Part shown: piece by piece, positions 1,893 through 12,453 of the stretch
How positions within the stretch are numbered: the stretch's first letter is position 1
How the letters are laid out: every line of letters begins with the position of its first letter
Source: a virus
DNA: 14,854 bases
UHGV virus genome: UHGV-0122456
Direction: 5' to 3' (one strand)
Program-made: the position numbers and the translations under genes
The notes under the pieces: generated by a model
What the model was told of the DNA's origin: nothing
The model's input: only the letters and a program-made list of their open reading frames with translations
The model's database searches: none

Positions 1893-2525
1893 ATGATACA
1901 GGTAAAGGCTGGAGAGAATACAGGGGGAAGAGAGGCTATCCATAGACTAATGGCAGCCTATGATTTCAAGTCCAGACAGCAACTTTGCGATCACTTAGGC
2001 GCATCAAAAAGTACCATGGCAAACAGATACTTAAGAGATAGTTTTCCTGCAGAGTGGGTGATTCAGTGCGCCTTGGAAACAGGAGTTTCTTTACTGTGGC
2101 TAACCACCGGACAGGGGGAGCCAGGTTCAAACATTGAACCCAAAAAAAATATCAATTCCGTGAACTCCAGCAAGGTTATACCTCTTTCTGAACTAGTATC
2201 TCCTGAAATTGACAAGGCGACTCTCAACGGTGGTTTATTGATCGATGCTGGAAAAGCAATCATTGATAGCAGCATACTCCCCTCAAACTCAAGCAACCTA
2301 CTGCTGGTGACTACTTCTGGTGATTCTTATTTAATAGATCGCAACCAAACACCACTAGTAAATGGTATGTGGTTAGTCGATATCGACGGGATAAAAAGCA
2401 TTGTTAAATTGACTCGACTCCCGGGAAACAAATTAGTAGTGCATCAGGATGATTCATCGTTTGAGTGCGGCCTGGATGACATTGAGGTAGTAGGCCGCGC
2501 ACTGAAAATCATTAAGAGCCTTTGA
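1893..2525 (+). CDS. cI: Immunity repressor CI (phage 186 CI family)
   Basis: 210 aa. N-terminal HTH region with NRY..........CALETG..L.WL.TG.GE and C-terminal GMWLVDIDG..SI..LTRLPG.KL......FECG.DDI..VGR match my recollection of 186 CI. Directly upstream of int, as in 186/P2. Confidence 0.85.
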   Translation: MIQVKAGENTGGREAIHRLMAAYDFKSRQQLCDHLGASKSTMANRYLRDSFPAEWVIQCALETGVSLLWLTTGQGEPGSNIEPKKNINSVNSSKVIPLSELVSPEIDKATLNGGLLIDAGKAIIDSSILPSNSSNLLLVTTSGDSYLIDRNQTPLVNGMWLVDIDGIKSIVKLTRLPGNKLVVHQDDSSFECGLDDIEVVGRALKIIKSL

Positions 2526-2526
2526 T

Positions 2527-3555
2527 ATGACCATCAGAAAACAGCCGAACGGAAAATGGTTGTGTGAGTGCTATCCCAATGGACGCAATGGCAAGCGCGT
2601 GCGTAAGCAATTTGCCACGAAAGGCGAAGCCATTGCGTTTGAAAGCTTCACAATGGAAGAAGTGAATAAAAAACCGTGGTTGGGTGAAAAGGATGATCGG
2701 CGACGCCTATCAGAGTTAATTGAGCTTTGGTATTCCCTGTATGGTCAGACACTCGCAGACCCCAAGCGCCTCATGGCGAAACTTAGAATTATCTGTAATG
2801 GTCTAGGCGACCCCATCGCCTCAGAACTGACAGCCGGAGACTTTACGAAATACCGCGAAGCACGGTTAAAAGGTGACCTTCGTAACGAAGACGGCACACT
2901 AATGTCGCCAGTAAAACCACGCACGGTGAATCTTGAGCAACGTAACCTATCATCGGTTTTCGGCACATTGAAAAAACTAGGCCACTGGTCAGCACCAAAT
3001 CCTCTCGTCGGGCTGCCAACATTTAAAATCGCTGAGGGTGAACTAGCATTCCTGACCCCGGAAGAAATTAAACGCCTACTGGATGCCTGTGCTGATTCTC
3101 AGAGTCCCAGTCTGTTGATGATTGCAAAAATATGCCTAGCAACTGGTGCCCGATGGAGTGAAGCAGAAAACCTGCAAGGGCATCAGTTATCAAAATATCG
3201 CATTACTTATACCAAGACCAAAGGTAAAAAAAACCGAACCGTTCCAATATCTCAAGAACTGTATGACGAACTACCTAAAAACAGGGGGAGATTATTTACC
3301 CCATGCAGAAAATCCTTTGAGCGTGCAGTAAAGCGAGCCGGTATCGAACTGCCAGAGGGCCAGTGCACCCACGTACTGCGCCATACATTCGCCAGCCATT
3401 TTATGATGAACGGCGGAAATATACTGGTACTGCGCGATATTCTGGGCCATGCTGATATAAAAATGACGATGGTTTACGCTCACTTTGCCCCTGATCACTT
3501 GGAAGATGCTGTAACAAAAAATCCACTTTACAAATTAGACTGGAAAAAAGCATGA
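2527..3555 (+). CDS. int: Tyrosine integrase (P2/186 Int family)
   Basis: 342 aa. C-terminal catalytic region TGARWSEA ... HVLRHTFASHFMMNGGNILVLRDILGH ... MVYAHFAP with Arg, His-x-x-Arg and Tyr closely resembles P2 Int. Lies next to the att core. Confidence 0.95.
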   Translation: MTIRKQPNGKWLCECYPNGRNGKRVRKQFATKGEAIAFESFTMEEVNKKPWLGEKDDRRRLSELIELWYSLYGQTLADPKRLMAKLRIICNGLGDPIASELTAGDFTKYREARLKGDLRNEDGTLMSPVKPRTVNLEQRNLSSVFGTLKKLGHWSAPNPLVGLPTFKIAEGELAFLTPEEIKRLLDACADSQSPSLLMIAKICLATGARWSEAENLQGHQLSKYRITYTKTKGKKNRTVPISQELYDELPKNRGRLFTPCRKSFERAVKRAGIELPEGQCTHVLRHTFASHFMMNGGNILVLRDILGHADIKMTMVYAHFAPDHLEDAVTKNPLYKLDWKKA

Positions 3556-4535
3556 CCCTTTATTCATCAATTGGCATTATGTTCTATGTTGTAATGTTAA
3601 TATACATATTGTATTTAACATATAAATACAAGTGGTATTTATTAAATGAACAAAACCTTATAAAACAGAAATTATTCTGGTTATCAATCGGAATACCAGT
3701 ATTATCATTCTTTTATTTTGGGATTTTCGCATGGTGGGGCAAGGTCCCGGTGTTAAGTGCCCACGGCTATACTCGCTTTTACGAAATCAGTAAATTCCCT
3801 CTAATGCTGCTAGCCAGTTCAGTACCTCTTGGAGCTATAGTTAAGAATATTCACAGGACCATTCAAACAGAGACGCAGCTTTCAAGGACAGAGCATCAAA
3901 TAGAGCTGGTAAAAGCAAAAAATAAATCTGATTCATTTTATGCCCACCAGAAGAGTTATGCCGATATTTTTAAAACTGTCCCTTCATTTATCGTTAGTAG
4001 AGAGTTTACCGAACACGATGATGGAAAAAAATATATAGAACCTTCCATTTCTCACCCTTATATTCTTTACATGAATATTTTTACAAAATCCTCTATTGAA
4101 GAAGGCTATAGCAAAGAAATAAGTTCATTATTTATGGGTAGAGTTCAAGATTATTATAAGAATATCAACAAAGCTATTAAAAGCTGTTACAACAAAGAGA
4201 CTTCTTATGATATCCAAGTGATTTCCCTTCAAATGCTCGAAATCAATATTATCCAACTTTGCAGAGAATTAGGGATCGACTATCGATATGAAAAACATGA
4301 GTTTATTCTTTTTGACTCCATTGAAGAAAAACCCTTCACCACTTCTTTCTCTGATGAAAAACAAATAAAGCAAATGGTCACTGGATTGCGCGAGCTGTTA
4401 GTTCATGTTTATATGCTGATTGGCTTAAGCCCTGAGGTCTTCCAAACGCCAAAAGGGCTATGGGACTTTATCCCTGACTATGGCAATGATTGCTCTAAGC
4501 TCTACCCAGCAATTCTACCTGCTGATAGGAATTAG
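3552..4535 (+). CDS. AT-rich cargo gene: membrane protein of unknown function (327 aa)
   Basis: ATG at 3552 overlaps the int stop as ATGA. Two to three N-terminal hydrophobic helices (about residues 7-24, 41-62, 82-97) followed by a roughly 230-aa K/E/Y/S-rich soluble domain. DNA is much more AT-rich than the flanking phage genes. No family recognised. Confidence 0.75.
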   Translation: MTLYSSIGIMFYVVMLIYILYLTYKYKWYLLNEQNLIKQKLFWLSIGIPVLSFFYFGIFAWWGKVPVLSAHGYTRFYEISKFPLMLLASSVPLGAIVKNIHRTIQTETQLSRTEHQIELVKAKNKSDSFYAHQKSYADIFKTVPSFIVSREFTEHDDGKKYIEPSISHPYILYMNIFTKSSIEEGYSKEISSLFMGRVQDYYKNINKAIKSCYNKETSYDIQVISLQMLEINIIQLCRELGIDYRYEKHEFILFDSIEEKPFTTSFSDEKQIKQMVTGLRELLVHVYMLIGLSPEVFQTPKGLWDFIPDYGNDCSKLYPAILPADRN

Positions 4536-4651
4536 CAATGGCGACAACTTGGCGGCAGAGCATTAAAAATGTGTAAAACCGACAAAAACAAAATAACACT
4601 AACGTACTGTTTTAAAACATAAATATATGTTTTTATTATAGTCAAAATGGT

Positions 4652-4696
4652 ATGTAGGAATTTCGGACGCGGGTTCAACTCCCGCCAGCTCCACCA
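4652..4696 (+). other. attP core: about 45-bp copy of the 3' end of the tmRNA gene ssrA (tRNA-like T-arm and acceptor CCA end); not a complete RNA gene
   Basis: ATGTAGGAATTTCGGACGCGGGTTCAACTCCCGCCAGCTCCACCA matches the 3' terminus of enterobacterial ssrA as I remember it. No ssrA 5' portion lies upstream; upstream is AT-rich phage DNA. Confidence 0.8.
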
Positions 4697-4706
4697 AATA
4701 AAACAA

Positions 4707-4739
4707 GGGGTTACGTGAAAGCGTAGCCCCTTTTTCTTT
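4707..4739 (+). terminator. Rho-independent terminator just 3' of the att core
   Basis: Stem GGGGTTACG (4707-4715) pairs with CGTAGCCCC (4722-4730), 9 bp with one G-U, loop TGAAAG, then TTTTTCTTT. An A-rich tract upstream makes it potentially bidirectional. Confidence 0.6.
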
Positions 4740-4819
4740 GGTAGTGGCGGCAAAATGGCGACAGGCTTTTGCGTCTTTCTTGCCTGTCGCCCTCTTGAAA
4801 TCATGCAAAGAGGTTTCAC

Positions 4820-5302
4820 ATGGAAGAACTTCACTTTGTTTACATCAATGCAAATGGTCGTATCGGAGTTCACTCAATACAGAGCATCAGTTATAGCGAA
4901 AATCATATACAGGGCATTTGTAAGAACACCGATCGAATAAAAACCTTCCGAAAAGACCGCATTCTTAAACAGTACGATTCACCAGAACAAGCCATTCAGG
5001 AATGCGCGTCATTCCTCCCCGAAAACTACTCACATCTCACTAAGCAGTCTGGTCCGAAAAAAAATACATTCGATGTGTGTTTCACCGGATTTAAGAAAGC
5101 AGATAAAGAAAGATTGGTTGATAAGGCGAATGAACAAGGATTAACGGTAAGAACCTCTGTAACCCAAAGCCTTCAGATGCTCTGTTGCGGTTACAATGCT
5201 GGCCCATCAAAAGTATCGGCAGCCAGGATGAAAGGCACAATCATCATAGATGAGCCTGGCTTTATACATTTTCTTGAAACGGGTGAGATCCCAGATGAAT
5301 AA
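4820..5302 (+). CDS. Small cargo protein with C-terminal BRCT-like domain (160 aa)
   Basis: RBS AAGAGG 7 nt before the ATG. C-terminal about 80 aa (DVCFTGF...RLV...GLTV..SV...L.CCGYNAGPSKVSAARMKGTIIIDEPGFIHFL) follows the pattern of the LigA C-terminal BRCT domain. N-terminal 60-aa domain unassigned. Confidence 0.7.
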   Translation: MEELHFVYINANGRIGVHSIQSISYSENHIQGICKNTDRIKTFRKDRILKQYDSPEQAIQECASFLPENYSHLTKQSGPKKNTFDVCFTGFKKADKERLVDKANEQGLTVRTSVTQSLQMLCCGYNAGPSKVSAARMKGTIIIDEPGFIHFLETGEIPDE

Positions 5303-5330
5303 AAACCTGCCGTAGCAGGTTCTCTTTCTC
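5303..5330. terminator. Bidirectional terminator between the convergent BRCT-like gene and ogr
   Basis: Hairpin ACCTGC-CGTA-GCAGGT (5305-5320), flanked by AAAAA upstream and TCTCTTTCTC downstream. Confidence 0.5.
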
Positions 5331-5547
5331 AAAAATTCATATGCCCCTGACCACCTGGCAATGGATGTGGAGGAGCAGTAGCAATCAGTGCGGGTGTCAC
5401 AATAAACCTGACCACTGTTTCATGGGTAACAAAAGTGCTCCCGCAGTTAATATTTTGGCACTGGCAGTAACGCTCTTTGGTGCTTTCAGTTACTTGAAAA
5501 CTGCTCCTTGTGTGTGCCGCATGACCACACTTTGGACAATTCATCAT
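5329..5547 (-). CDS. ogr: Ogr/B-type zinc-finger late-gene transcriptional activator
   Basis: MMNCPKCGHAAHTRSSF...YCQCQNINCGSTF has the Cys4 motif and about 72-aa length of P2 Ogr. I start it at the internal Met (5547 or 5544), not the 87-aa ORF start at 5592. Confidence 0.85.
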   Translation of the reverse strand: MMNCPKCGHAAHTRSSFQVTESTKERYCQCQNINCGSTFVTHETVVRFIVTPALIATAPPHPLPGGQGHMNF

Positions 5548-5615
5548 ATCCAGATCCCTACCTTTGCTATCAGAATCATTGTAATGATACACATAATATC
5601 AATATTGAGAACACT

Positions 5616-6716
5616 TTATTCCATTTCAAGATCATCAATCTTCACTTCGAGTTCAATACTGGTTGTAAAACCGTTATCCGGGCTGACGGTATGTGTCAGA
5701 GTCGTAATGGTCCATTCCGCATCATCTATCGGCTGTTTAAAACCACTGACTTTCACTGGCATTTCCGTGTAGAGATCTGCCCGACCTTCCGCCAGTTGTA
5801 GCGAGAATGACGCAACGCCGCGTTGCAGGCGTTCCCACTGCATTTTCGCCGCTCGTTCGGCGTTGCTCCGGTTGGCATAAGTGCGATTAAGTACCAGCAC
5901 GTTTTCATCCGTACCCACCAGGTAATCGCCCTGCTTCGCTTCCGTCTCTTTCTTCTGCTTCTTAGTCCTGCGCTTACGCTTCACCGTGGTGCTTTCTTTC
6001 TTCGAGGGTTCGCGAGTATGCAACCAGCTGGCAATTACGCCCGTGTAAGCTCCGCGATCTGCCAGGGTAAAGCGGTGACTGTCGCCGTCCTTACGTGTGA
6101 TAGTGATCACCGGTAGTGGTTTACCGCTGGCGCTTTTACCCTGTCCCTGTCGGATGAATAACAGATTGCCATTTTTCACCGACGCAATAGCACCGTACTG
6201 GCGCGCCAACCGCATCAGAAAACTGCCGTCACTCTCATTGGTCTGGTCTATATGTTCCACGGGTTTATCTGACAGGTCTTTACCCAATGTCATCTTCAGT
6301 TTGTGCCGCGCAGCTATTTCCTTCACCACTTCCCCAACGGTGGTCTTGTGCCACGACTTTTCACGGCGGGTATTCAGCGTTTCACGAAAATCAGCACTTC
6401 GCGCCCGGATAGTCAGGCGGTCCGGTGCGCCAGTGTGTTCAATCTCGTCCACCGTGAATGTCCCTTTCGGGAAAAGCGGCTGCCCCTTCCAGCCCAGCGC
6501 CAGCGTAATGACCGCACCACGGCGCGGCAGCACGATTTTTCCGTCGGCGTCGTCCAGCTCCAGATCAAGCTGGTCCGCGTCAAAGCCCCGATTGTCCGTC
6601 AACGTCAGACTCATCAGACGGTTATCCAGCACAGTAGTGATATCCCTGCCCTCAATACTGATGCTGAATGCGGGAGTTTTGTTGCCTTTGTTAAGCAGTT
6701 CAGAGCTGAAATTCAC
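5616..6716 (-). CDS. D: Tail protein D (late control gene D family)
   Basis: 366 aa, in the P2 gpD position between U and ogr. 4-bp overlap with U. Confidence 0.85.
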   Translation of the reverse strand: MNFSSELLNKGNKTPAFSISIEGRDITTVLDNRLMSLTLTDNRGFDADQLDLELDDADGKIVLPRRGAVITLALGWKGQPLFPKGTFTVDEIEHTGAPDRLTIRARSADFRETLNTRREKSWHKTTVGEVVKEIAARHKLKMTLGKDLSDKPVEHIDQTNESDGSFLMRLARQYGAIASVKNGNLLFIRQGQGKSASGKPLPVITITRKDGDSHRFTLADRGAYTGVIASWLHTREPSKKESTTVKRKRRTKKQKKETEAKQGDYLVGTDENVLVLNRTYANRSNAERAAKMQWERLQRGVASFSLQLAEGRADLYTEMPVKVSGFKQPIDDAEWTITTLTHTVSPDNGFTTSIELEVKIDDLEME

Positions 6717-7198
6717 GACAGCAGCCCTCCCACCGTTTTACTGATATCACTTAAGGCAGATGTTGCCGTGTCCTGCAGATTATTCAGTTGCGTACTGAGA
6801 TCACCGAACATATCGGACAGGGATTCATCCACCCGTTTGAGCGACAGGGTGAACTCAATCCGGCGCGGCATACCGTCGCGGAAAAACTCCGTTTTAGTCT
6901 GATTCAGTCCCTCAATCACATACATGCCGTAAATCGTGCCGCTGCCTTCAATCAGGGGCCATGCTTTTCCCTGTTCTGCCATCTGCTCCAGAGCCAGCAA
7001 CGACAGCCTGCCGCCCGTTACCTCCGGCATAAGAACACCAGAAAGCGTCAGCATGTCGTTGTCCGGTCCCAGAAACTGCGTTGACGGGCGTCGGTTTACC
7101 CGGCTGTTTGCCGCATGTCGCCAGCTGCGTTGATACTGCAGCTCCTGATACGGCACGGTGCGCAGCATAAACACGTACAATCCCAGCACCATCATCAT
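6713..7198 (-). CDS. U: Tail protein U
   Basis: 161 aa, matching the P2 gpU size and position. ATGA-type overlaps with T upstream and D downstream. Confidence 0.85.
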   Translation of the reverse strand: MMMVLGLYVFMLRTVPYQELQYQRSWRHAANSRVNRRPSTQFLGPDNDMLTLSGVLMPEVTGGRLSLLALEQMAEQGKAWPLIEGSGTIYGMYVIEGLNQTKTEFFRDGMPRRIEFTLSLKRVDESLSDMFGDLSTQLNNLQDTATSALSDISKTVGGLLS

Positions 7199-10100
7199 GC
7201 GTCGTATCCCCCCTGATCGCTGTAGTTACTCCTGGCTTTTGCCTTCAGCCTGCGTTCACGTTCATCAAGCTGGCGGGCCACCTCCCGCGCAATATCCTGC
7301 GCACTTTGTCCTGGCTGCGTCTGGATGATGATCTGCGTCGGTGCCTCAATCCTGTAAACAGGCGGCACAGTGGCTGCGCGACTCACAATTGCTTCTCCAC
7401 CTTTCGCGGGAAGTGCCAAAGGGTGCAACGGTGGAAGCTCTGCTGGCGCGGCAGCAACGCCCATCATTCCGGCAACAACGGTAGCCAGTGCAGCTGTATT
7501 TCTCCGGCTGGTCACGTTTGCCGGACCGTTAACAATTTCAGGCCCGTTTTCACCGACAATGCCGAACTGCCCGCGCGGGATATAGCCGCCGCTGTCATAC
7601 ATCCCCGCAAATCCATATCCCCATGACGGAAAACCACCCGATGGCATCATCACTTTACCGTCTGCATTCACCGTCGCAGGTTGCTGACGCGTCACACTTT
7701 CCGGCAGTTTCGCCTTTGCAGCCTCTTTACTGACAATGCCGAGCTTCTCCAGCAACCAGGAAACGCCGGATTTCAGGGAGTCCAGCGGATGCATGACCAT
7801 ATTCAGCCCTTCCGCCAGCGCCTCCCCGAATCGTCGCCCCATTGCCGCTGCGCTCTGCAGTTCGGCAGAGGTCGACTTAACGGGCGTCAGCAGATCAGTA
7901 AACCAGCCCCACAACGCCTGCACTTTGTCGCCAATCCACTGAAACACAGGCTTAAGTGGTTCGAATGCTGCACTGACGGGACCTGCCGCCGCTTTGAATC
8001 CTTCCACCACGCCACCGAGAAATGCGGTGATGGGTTGCCAGTATTTCCAGACAACCAGCGCCACACCCGCCAGTGCAGTAACCACAAGACCTATCGGACT
8101 AAGCAGAGCACCTAACAGACCAGATATGGCATACAGGGCAACGCGCAGCATCGCCAGCGGACCAGATGCAAGCACTCGCAGCACCGCGCCTGCGGCTGCC
8201 AGTCCACCGCGCAGTACCGCCAGAGGATTCATAAACATCACAGCAACAGCACGTAAACCGGATAATCCAGACCGCAAAAGTGCAACTGGCGCACCTGCTA
8301 CAGTTTTCAGGACATTTCCCGACAGTGATGCCGTGCGGCGCAAAGACGACAACGGCGCAGTAAGTAAACCTGCGGCGTTGCCCGATGAAGCAAGCCCGCG
8401 TCGCAGCAGTGCCAGTGGAGCGCCAGCTAACCAAGACAACGCTCTGCTGGTTCGTGTTACTGCTGCCGTAACGGAAGGTAACGTTTTGATACCCAGCACA
8501 GAGAATCCCAGACGGATGACTGCCAGCGGCCCCAGCACTGCAGCCAGCGCCACCGCTAAGGTGCCGAGGCCTACGGTAACCGCAGCCACAACAGCCGCTA
8601 CTTTCATCAGTGTGCCTGTCAGTTCCGGGTTAGCTTCCACCCAGCGGCGCAACGCCCCCGTGATGCTTTTCACCGTGTACAGAATATCCATCAGCGGCTG
8701 GCGCAGCGTTTCGCCCAGGCTGCTGAAGGTGTTCTGCGCTCCGGTTTTGACCAGCAACCACTGAGCAGAAAGTGAGTCTTTGTTGATGTCGGATTCTTTC
8801 TGCATGGAACCGAGCGCATCATTGCCCGCTGTCAGTTTTAGCTGGCGCTGCAGTTCCGGAAGGTTGTTTGCCAGTTTCGCCGCGTCATCACCAAACTCTT
8901 TACCAAACAACATGGTCATGGCAGACAGACGCTTGTCCTGCGGCAGTGCGTTCACCTTCTCCAGCACACGCTGGATAGTTCCCATCGCATCCTTCGTCAT
9001 CTGCTTTTCAATCACTTCAGGATTGAGTTTCAGCAGATTCATCCCTTCAAAGAAACTCTTGCTTTGCATGGTGGCAATGGACAATTCACGCACCATCGCG
9101 TTTGCTGCACTGGCTGCAACCTCCGGCGCAGCGCCCAGTGTCAGAAAGGTGGAACCCAGTGCCGCCGCTTTACGATAATCCAGACGGTCAGCCACACCGC
9201 CCAGACGTTGCATCACATCAATGATGTCCGCCCCTTTCGACATGGCGTTATCATCCAGATAGTTCAGCGCATCGCCGAGCTGTTCAATATTGCGGGTAGG
9301 TATTTTGTAGAGCTGGGCGATTTTCCCCAGACTTTCTGACAGTTCATCCGCTGGCAGCTCAAAGGCTGTTGCCGCCTTTGCTGCCGTACTGGCGAAGGCC
9401 AGCAGGTCACGTTTCTGGTCTTCCCAGCTGTCGTCAGGGTTTGCGACGTTCATGCGCGCACCACCTTCAACCAGTGCAGCGAAGTCCACCGCACCGTTTT
9501 CCATCGGCAACTGTTCGCTGGCAGCCTTGATGGCATCCTGCATTTCATAAAAACGTGCAGTGCGGTTGCCATTATCGTCACGCAGACCATTGACCTGCTT
9601 TGCCACGCCTTTCATGGCATCTTCCATGCTGGTATAGCTTTTTACTGCCGCCATCACTGGCGCACCCATTGCCAGCCCTGCAGCCGTGGTAGTGGCTCCG
9701 GCTCCTGCGATGCGATCGCGCACTTCAAGCCGTCTTGAGTATTGATCCCTGACAGCGTTCATCCGTGCCTGTTGTTCACCCAGACGTTTAAGTGCTTTTT
9801 GCTGGCCCTCCAGTGCCTGCCTTGTTTCTTCAGCATTTTTCTTAAGTTCTCGCTGGGCACTACTGAGTTGTCTGGTATCAATCCCTGATTCTTTAAGTGC
9901 CTGACGTTGTCTCTGGACCGCCCCCAACAAGCCGTTATAGGTCTGCTGAAGTTCCTGTACTCGTGTTTTGGCCTGACTGAATAACTTTGCCTGCGCGGCG
10001 GTTGGCCTGTTAGTGGCAGCAAATTGTGTGGCGAGTTTTGCCGCCTCTTCGCGGGCTGCGTTCAGGTTGTTGGCTGTTATGGCTAGTTGCGAGCGCGTCT

Positions 10101-11280: not shown

Positions 11281-12453
11281 TTACGCGCTGACCTGGCTGG
11301 CAAAATTCACCAGGTACTGATCGGTGATGCGCTGGCGCAGCATCAGATTTTCAAGTGGCGGCACTGGCGTGTAGTCATAGTCGATGGTGAGTTTTCCGGC
11401 TTTCAGCGTGTCTTTATCGTTCACCGACTCATCCAGCCAGCAATCACCACCAATGAGATAGCCCTGACTGACCAGGCTGCGCATTTTGGCGCGGATACCT
11501 TCGATAATGTCGCGGGCCAGCGACGGGTTAAGAGGTTTATCCACCGCCCACATGTGTGCTTCTGCAATCGTGTCCATCAGCACCTGCGCCGTGCGGGTGT
11601 AGTTTTCGAAGGCAAAGAGCGGGTCATCACTCAAGCAGCGGGAACCCCAGAAGCGGAAACCGTCTTTACGCACAAGCGTGGTGACGTCGTTCTGGTTCAG
11701 CAGACCTGCATCAGTTGCCGGGTCCTGCAGATCCCAGAACACATCAGCAGAAATTCCGGTGACACCGTTCACGCCCACGTTGGACAGGCTTTTGTGCCAT
11801 CCAGTCTGCTCATCAATTTTGGCGCGCAGACCAAGCGCACGGGCGGTGGCATATGCCGTTGCTTCGGCATTCAGTACCGTGTCCCAGCCAGTAAAGTCAG
11901 GCCAGATCAGCATCCCTTCGCGCTGGCTGAAGTTTTCACGGTAAGTGATCGCCTCCTGTATCGTCTTGCAGCCATACGCTGACAGGTAAGCAAACCCACG
12001 CAGGCTTTGCGCCACGCTCAGCAACTCAGTAGCTACCGCCTTGGTGTCGTGACCAGGTACACCCAGAATGCGTGGTTTAACGCCGAGCTGTGAATGAGCA
12101 GATAACAGGGCTTTCATGCCAGTTTTTTTACCTTCAGCGGTCACTGCGCCGATGATATTGGTCGTGGTTTCTTCTTCCGTTTCACCCTGCGGCACACGCA
12201 CAACAACGGTCACGGGTTTTGCCTGGTCAGCGATGGCATCCAGCGAACGGGCCAGAGTACCGGACTCACCCGCTTTACCGCTGGCAGTCAGCACATCAGT
12301 GATCAGCACGGGTTTATTAAGAGGAAACATTTTTGCATCGGCATCATCGCCCGTGCAGACCATACCCACGATGGCGGTGCTCACCGTGGTAATGGATCGG
12401 GTGCCTTCGTTGACTTCAACAACGCGCACCCCGTGGTGGTAATCCTGAGCCAT
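11281..12453 (-). CDS. FI: Contractile tail sheath protein FI
   Basis: 390 aa, matching P2 FI in size and position as first gene of the FI-FII-E-T-U-D operon. Confidence 0.9.

Follow-up and report, generated by a model that had tools for sequence, protein, structure and literature searches.

A membrane-protein gene between int and attP of a Fels-2/186-type prophage: an interchangeable hotspot cargo and candidate single-gene anti-phage system

The sequence analyzed here, 14,854 nucleotides (nt) of the UHGV virus genome UHGV-0122456 (the window, meaning the whole stretch at its full length), is that of a temperate phage of the Fels-2/186 type (Peduoviridae), with the early region running into the tail genes. 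Between its integrase gene, int, and its attachment site, attP, lies an AT-rich open reading frame (ORF) on the + strand (3552..4535; ATG start; 327 amino acids [aa]), here called the cargo gene, the product of which is predicted to be an inner-membrane protein. The cargo gene is accessory, not core, and the int-attP slot that it occupies is a true hotspot that also carries a known defense gene. Within the protein, the membrane module is tightly constrained, and the C-terminal domain (C-domain) evolves at roughly five times the rate and has been exchanged among alleles. Judged from the sequence and its context, an anti-phage function of some kind has about an even chance of being correct. The hotspot logic is already established; the protein family is new to annotation. 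The finding is best seen as a sound and well-placed candidate, not as a surprise.

The cargo gene lies on the same strand as cI and int, overlaps int by 4 bp, and ends next to the first arm of attP. The features of this region are as follows.

1893..2525, + strand: cI repressor gene, first of the leftward (lysogenic) operon (Pfam Phage_CI_repr 5e-31, Phage_CI_C 4e-28)
2527..3555, + strand: tyrosine integrase gene, int, of the Fels-2/ssrA type (Pfam Int_N 8e-29, Phage_integrase 1.4e-24)
3552..3555, + strand: ATGA, the int TGA stop overlapping the cargo ATG start (from the sequence)
3552..4535, + strand: cargo gene, encoding a predicted 327-aa membrane protein, member of PHROG 17460
4539..4557, + strand: attP P-arm, two direct TGGCGRCA repeats (4539, 4550), beginning 3 nt past the cargo stop (4533-4535)
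4665..4696, + strand: attP core, the 3' end of ssrA (tmRNA) (Rfam RF00023, 48.2 bits, match ending at 4696)
4705..4732, + strand: terminator-like hairpin
4745..4763, + strand: attP P'-arm, two direct TGGCGRCA repeats (4745, 4756)

The repressor immediately before int is a 186-type CI. The cargo ORF has a G+C content of 0.350, lower than that of the window (0.491), int (0.466), cI (0.438), and the tail genes (0.53-0.56); at third codon positions (GC3), it is 0.36 compared with 0.44 for int. An earlier note on this DNA, made by eye from the letters, had described a gene wedged between int and attP, starting in an ATGA overlap with the int stop and with roughly one-third G+C, a sharp drop against its flanks; the sequence and the computed composition bear out all of these points. 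At the int/cargo junction, neither a terminator-like site nor an above-chance promoter signal was found between the genes. The commonest NCBI call for the window allele (P0001, 219 member sequences) starts at Met15 and gives a product of 313 aa. That start would cut off half of the first membrane helix, and the longer start at 3552 is supported both by full-length homologues and by family-wide starts within a few nt of the int stop.

The attP is of the ssrA type, which is known for Fels-2 and SopE-phi (PMC3448106). The arm motif TGGCGRCA has 9 matches in the window compared with 1.4 expected by chance, the core identical to the ssrA 3' end matches 5426/5426 E. coli genomes, and E. coli prophage matches to the window stop at about 4697-4700. 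After integration, the hairpin at 4705..4732 would follow the rebuilt ssrA gene. The exact cargo allele of the window is present in 7 of the 5426 complete E. coli genomes, each time at ssrA; the allele of E. coli BE2-5 is 46% identical to it. In phages with an empty slot, the int stop lies 3 nt before the first arm repeat, the same place that the cargo stop takes here.

The content of the slot was compared across two sets of viral contigs. Among 80 contigs that encode a relative of the cargo protein (the family-anchored sample), 76 have the gene order cI-int-cargo. In these 76, int is mostly 90-96% identical to that of the window (67-77% in nine), the cargo proteins share 29-53% identity with the window protein, and the cI identities range from 33 to 98%. 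The exact ATGA/GTGA overlap recurs at 27 of the 76 junctions; at the remaining loci, the cargo starts between -12 and +8 nt from the int stop or overlaps int further. Over the family loci, the G+C content averages 0.32 in the cargo, against 0.47 in int. For example, three homologues from Klebsiella and Citrobacter (∼40-45% local identity, 32-35% over the full alignment) lie directly 3' of the same int, with a 4-bp int overlap, at the prophage edge. An independent sample, comprising 80 contigs picked by int similarity alone, held the following in the slot.

PHROG 17460 family: 21/80 int-anchored contigs
Other cargo, attP core located: 19/80
No attP core found: 18/80
Empty, 162 bp from int stop to core end: 16/80
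Contig ends at the slot: 6/80

The alternative cargo types were counted over the 19 contigs with other cargo and the 18 without a located core together.

Roughly 400-aa protein: 22 contigs
514-aa unknown protein: 4 contigs
dCTP-deaminase defense gene: 3 contigs (L097, L120, L123; PADLOC PDLC02373, 2e-146)
222-aa membrane protein: 3 contigs
dCTP-deaminase-like membrane protein plus ThyX: 2 contigs

All of the cargo types found in the slot have a low G+C content (0.33-0.37), and the dCTP deaminase is a validated defense gene. The slot of Fels-2 itself is empty. The earlier note had supposed an att-adjacent variable position and had proposed that related genomes be searched for an empty slot or for other cargo; both were found, 16 of the int-anchored contigs being empty and at least 19 filled with other cargo, against 21 with the family. 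A core role at a conserved position does not hold, the slot being so often empty or otherwise filled.

In the int-attP slot of contigs L139 and L165 (about 5040-6610), a dCTP-deaminase/dUTPase-like protein with a C-terminal membrane helix is encoded together with a ThyX thymidylate synthase; neither is in PADLOC, and the gene pair may be a nucleotide-pool-based system. Phage Cartapus carries in the same slot a different, 401-aa gene, called RES-like by its depositors. This "RES protein" label was not confirmed: the related slot protein of contig L159 has no Pfam or PADLOC match, the Cartapus protein itself being unscanned.

The family is not confined to this slot. Distant members lie between portal/Ogr and GpA of P2-like phages, that is, in the old/tin hotspot, and others are found past the tail-fiber genes at the ends of other prophages, adjoining umuDC in Pseudomonas (one case), and near an insertion sequence element in Edwardsiella (one case). 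Overall, the family occupies at least three different prophage cargo slots. In contig L087, two tandem family paralogues (4845-5888 and 5885-6985), with ORFs overlapping by 4 bp (5885-5888), share the portal/Ogr-GpA position of a P2-like phage; they have 27% G+C and different C-domains. In a P2-like prophage with a family member in the portal-GpA hotspot (L181), a 254-aa gene with no Pfam match lies between cI and int (11629-12393); a hotspot at the cI-int position has been described in Vibrio K139-like phages by Rousset et al. (PMC9122126).

The AlphaFold model of the cargo protein (59-sequence alignment; predicted local distance difference test [pLDDT] 85.5, predicted template modeling score [pTM] 0.62) and the hydropathy peaks place helices at aa 2-25, 40-61, and 70-141. 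The parts of the protein, with their coding coordinates, are listed below.

3555..3626, + strand: hydrophobic helix 1, aa 2-25, poorly conserved in sequence (hydropathy, model, alignment conservation)
3669..3734, + strand: hydrophobic helix 2, aa 40-61, conserved (LFW.SI..P..SF.YFG.FAWWG) (hydropathy, model)
3786..3842, + strand: hydrophobic helix 3, aa 79-97, conserved (P83, L87, P92) (hydropathy, model)
3846..3953, + strand: juxtamembrane helix, aa 99-134, with the family signature NIHRTIQTE.Q ... KN..D....H.K
3966..4532, + strand: fast-evolving C-domain, aa 139-327

Transmembrane (TM) helices, a feature of abortive-infection membrane effectors, are thus predicted here by hydropathy and the model, and number three, where two or three N-terminal ones followed by a large soluble domain had been seen by eye. 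In the model, the third span (aa 79-97) runs on to aa 141 as a 44-residue juxtamembrane helix. The C-domain is compact, with three long and several short helices and a beta-hairpin, and matches no assignable fold; modeled alone (aa 139-327), it reaches a pLDDT of 86 and a pTM of 0.85. Across 110 relatives, the mean number of lysines plus arginines rises from 2.6 and 2.2 in loops 1 and 2, respectively, to 5.4 past helix 3, and some relatives possess an additional N-terminal span behind a basic tail. Both observations favor the same topology, in which the C-domain is probably cytoplasmic.

The family is large. A word-index search yielded 64 homologous clusters, of which all the named ones come from Enterobacterales, and an exhaustive profile search yielded 958 clusters at E ≤1e-3, 450 at 1e-10, and 174 at 1e-30. 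A profile search of genome contigs with closer sequences gave 6 species-representative genomes, and one relative was found in Pseudomonas chlororaphis. Among 110 diverse members, L36, H101, and Q105 are invariant, and Q39, F42, P49, W61, G72, F76, P83, L87, R102, T106, Q109, I110, K123, N124, D127, H132, K134, and Y173 are conserved in at least 90%. Of the conserved polar residues between positions 101 and 134, those at 9 of the 11 positions checked fall on one helical face, as calculated from helical angles.

The two halves of the protein evolve at different rates. The mean pairwise identity of the N-core (aa 27-135) is 0.66 versus 0.26 for the C-domain in the close set of relatives and 0.45 versus 0.15 in the diverse set. 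The median ratio of nonsynonymous to synonymous substitution rates (dN/dS), from 21 gene pairs with unsaturated dS, is 0.04 for the N-core versus 0.21 for the C-domain, and no pair exceeds 1, the level that would indicate positive selection in such pairwise comparisons. These values imply that both halves are functional and, together with the homologous clusters, that the cargo ORF did not arise by chance. In some pairs, the N-cores are 85-90% identical and the C-domains only 24-30% identical. Conversely, other pairs are 30-50% identical in the N-core and up to 65% identical in the C-domain. These opposite patterns indicate that modules are exchanged within the gene.

Searches for known relatives returned a single family, PHROG 17460, of unknown function; the match (E 2.7e-51) aligns aa 6-284 with positions 4-285 of a profile 343 positions long. 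No other PHROG family matched at a significant E-value, and hence none of the annotated exclusion families that PHROGs may hold. The Pfam-A and NCBIfam scans of the cargo protein gave no family at E values up to 1, and PADLOC-DB v2.0.0 (models to 2023) gave no match, so the impression of a protein with no recognizable motif stands, and the PADLOC check that had been proposed along with it found no defense model. Scanning the 110 diverse relatives produced only scattered chance matches in Pfam (the commonest in 4 members, E 4e-4) and, in PADLOC, isolated weak matches to TM effector models (E 4e-5 to 9e-3, in 1-2 of the 110). The Foldseek comparison, also proposed at the outset, was run with the model against BFVD (viral predicted structures) and returned nothing at E ≤1e-3. 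A sequence profile searched against PDB chains hit designed helical bundles only, with no relative among them. By megablast and tblastn against the phage collection, the window allele is in no deposited phage; distant relatives are present in two records. When the C-domain was searched by itself for fusions to other modules, only the same small clade was recovered. The homologues are called "hypothetical protein" in every source, and the literature searched, on this PHROG and on exclusion genes of Fels-2 and of P2-like phages, contained no description of the protein. A conversion gene that modifies the O antigen, of the Gtr/Oac type, was considered as well and rejected on the general character of such genes and the lack of a Pfam match of any kind.

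The protein family is therefore undescribed, as had been claimed, but the hotspot idea is not. The main hotspots of P2 are known from the work of Rousset et al. (PMC9122126), and the int-att region of P2-like phages has been called a minor hotspot (PMC13586616; 10.1101/2024.10.15.618418), with 3% of the P2 defense systems located between int and att in a 2026 survey (PMC13586616). A 2024 preprint (10.1101/2024.10.15.618418) names a further, third hotspot in P2-like phages, located between cI and a tail gene. In the same 2026 survey, 6/8 randomly chosen unknown genes of the main P4 hotspot protected against phages (PMC13586616).

The cargo is best explained as an interchangeable gene of the int-attP hotspot in Fels-2/186-type (Peduoviridae) prophages that would be transcribed leftward in one operon with cI and int, as its last cistron. 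Such a position would entail low-level expression in the lysogen, tied to int translation, and the translational coupling would keep the dose low and limit it to lysogens. Expression of the cargo gene from the cI-int transcript would be expected by analogy; for 186, an int-lacZ fusion has been used as a readout of leftward, lysogenic transcription (PMC7708051). In its most likely role, the cargo protein would protect the lysogen against other phages: the variable C-domain would recognize a phage-made cue, after which the conserved membrane module would act on the membrane and halt the infection. The nearly invariant three-helix module, with its H-R-T-x-Q-T polar stripe, would be the killing or blocking device, and the interchangeable cytoplasmic C-domains would set which phage is recognized. 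This specific sensor-plus-membrane-effector abortive mechanism is put forward tentatively. It is likewise possible, although doubtful at present, that PHROG 17460 constitutes an unnamed large family of single-protein membrane-anchored phage sensors, with the window gene as its founding example.

The original suggestion of a superinfection-exclusion or abortive-infection candidate holds up in its genomic part, the gene being accessory, AT-rich, located in a hotspot, adjacent to int in a conserved arrangement, free of assigned domains, and in a slot that elsewhere carries a defense gene; for phage resistance itself, it is a candidate. Several considerations weigh against a sensor-effector defense protein. 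Given the lack of homology to any known defense, exclusion, or toxin family, the argument for defense is one of context only. Hotspots also carry anti-defense and other cargo, and AT-rich enterobacterial genes are often silenced by H-NS. The positive-inside signal that underlies the topology is weak. The C-domain is, on average, under purifying selection, and an arms race is not demonstrated. Finally, the copy in E. coli 33-6 (L001, NZ_CP050031.1; locus 6253-7240) is frameshifted by 1 extra bp in a run of A past about codon 160, so that it keeps the membrane module but loses the C-domain; the Prokaryotic Genome Annotation Pipeline (PGAP) annotates a 192-aa fragment only. In strain 58-3, from the same study, two "hypothetical protein" features lie under the match, which suggests the same split. 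Truncated copies, if real, speak against a membrane module that kills the cell when its C-domain no longer restrains it; the 33-6 frameshift may, however, be a homopolymer sequencing error rather than real decay.

Among the other explanations, the one that survives best is non-abortive superinfection exclusion, in which a membrane protein blocks the incoming genome at the inner membrane and the cell survives, as with P22 SieA or T4 Imm. A predicted inner-membrane product, probably expressed from the lysogenic operon of a prophage and encoded in a hotspot, would suit this role, and the conserved membrane module and the likewise conserved loop that joins helices 2 and 3 might contact a conserved host or phage component of entry. 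However, the variable part is predicted, if weakly, to lie in the cytoplasm, whereas ejected phage proteins would be encountered in the periplasm, and the absence of a second PHROG match also counts against exclusion, which is accordingly rated as rather unlikely. Its chance is counted separately and adds to that given above for an anti-phage function.

The cargo gene could instead serve a lysogenic conversion function unrelated to phages, benefiting the lysogen through altered envelope physiology, stress tolerance, or host interaction. The att-adjacent positions of temperate phages often hold conversion genes, and a membrane protein without a recognized enzymatic motif would not be out of place among them. 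Nevertheless, the family recurs in slots that otherwise hold defense genes, and a conserved module joined to a shuffled variable domain is not expected of a housekeeping-type membrane function; conversion is thus considered improbable. Slightly less probable again is a function for the phage itself, be it counter-defense, control of lysis or induction timing, or help in integration or excision. The tight junction with int is in keeping with such a role, and P2-like hotspots are known to hold anti-defense cargo as well (PMC13586616), but family members are also found away from any int, and the cargo gene is not needed for integration, as the slot is empty in Fels-2 and in 16 of the contigs sampled for the same int. 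That the gene is a silent or decaying passenger, carried but unexpressed or useless, is very improbable: its AT-rich composition would allow silencing by H-NS, and a frameshifted copy occurs in 2/7 complete E. coli genomes (in 58-3 by annotation only), but both halves are under purifying selection, and the 958 clusters retain invariant residues and the int junction is conserved.

Other genes are found on the far side of attP. In the window, a 160-aa gene (4820-5302, + strand) has a weak BRCT-like C terminus (Pfam BRCT 1e-3, below the cut-off), matches PHROG 2561, which is labeled "DNA ligase" (2e-77), and partially matches the PADLOC candidate PDC-S48 (1.8e-7). Conserved counterparts are found in phages Cartapus (as a "putative exonuclease") and 500465-1, and the gene may be a second att-adjacent accessory gene. 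In E. coli 33-6 (L001, 7565-12412), a second element with its own P4-type integrase lies directly past the prophage end at ssrA. Second elements beyond this end are also present at loci L004, L007, L012, and L013, some with defense-type genes; that of L013 encodes a HamA/Cap4-nuclease protein and a helicase. Thus, ssrA carries tandem islands.

Membrane-based anti-phage proteins are among the least understood defenses, and here a family of about a thousand clusters has no name, domain assignment, or structural relative. If the cargo protein is protective, it would add a new single-gene system to the defense catalogue and provide a tractable model for the way in which a membrane module is joined to a recognition domain that can change; it would also mark the int-attP slot of Fels-2/186-type phages, so far little studied, as a productive place to search. 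If it is not, its membrane module is nevertheless under strong constraint, which points to a conserved function in the lysogen. The two-part design of the protein suits domain-swap work.

Among known systems, the arrangement resembles the defense cargo of the P2-like hotspots (old/tin at GpA-portal, Z/fun, and the minor int-att site), which likewise combine conserved flanks with interchangeable AT-rich cargo, including a dCTP deaminase (PMC9122126, PMC13586616). The old/tin hotspot even holds distant relatives of the window protein, which itself resembles neither Old, Tin, or Fun nor any PADLOC model in sequence or fold. P22 SieA, T4 Imm, and lactococcal Sie2009, the last encoded beside int, are superinfection-exclusion membrane proteins. 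They share with the window protein a membrane location and a place beside int or repressor genes, with expression in the lysogen to be expected here also; the window protein is much larger, however, with a 190-aa, probably cytoplasmic domain. CapRel(SJ46) is a fused sensor-effector single-gene defense with a nucleotide pyrophosphokinase toxin. Its logic is similar, with a conserved N-terminal module and a fast-diverging C-terminal domain swapped between alleles, but the window protein, with its membrane module, is not homologous and is unrelated in chemistry, and the truncated copies call autoinhibition by the C-domain into question. Finally, the abortive TM effectors (those of CBASS and Pycsar, RexB, and KwaA) likewise contain a small N-terminal bundle of membrane helices, and the context suggests protection of the lysogen here too. 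Matches to these effectors are at chance level only, and the window protein has no partner gene or signaling enzyme; it differs from all of them in that its membrane module is fused to a large domain of its own.

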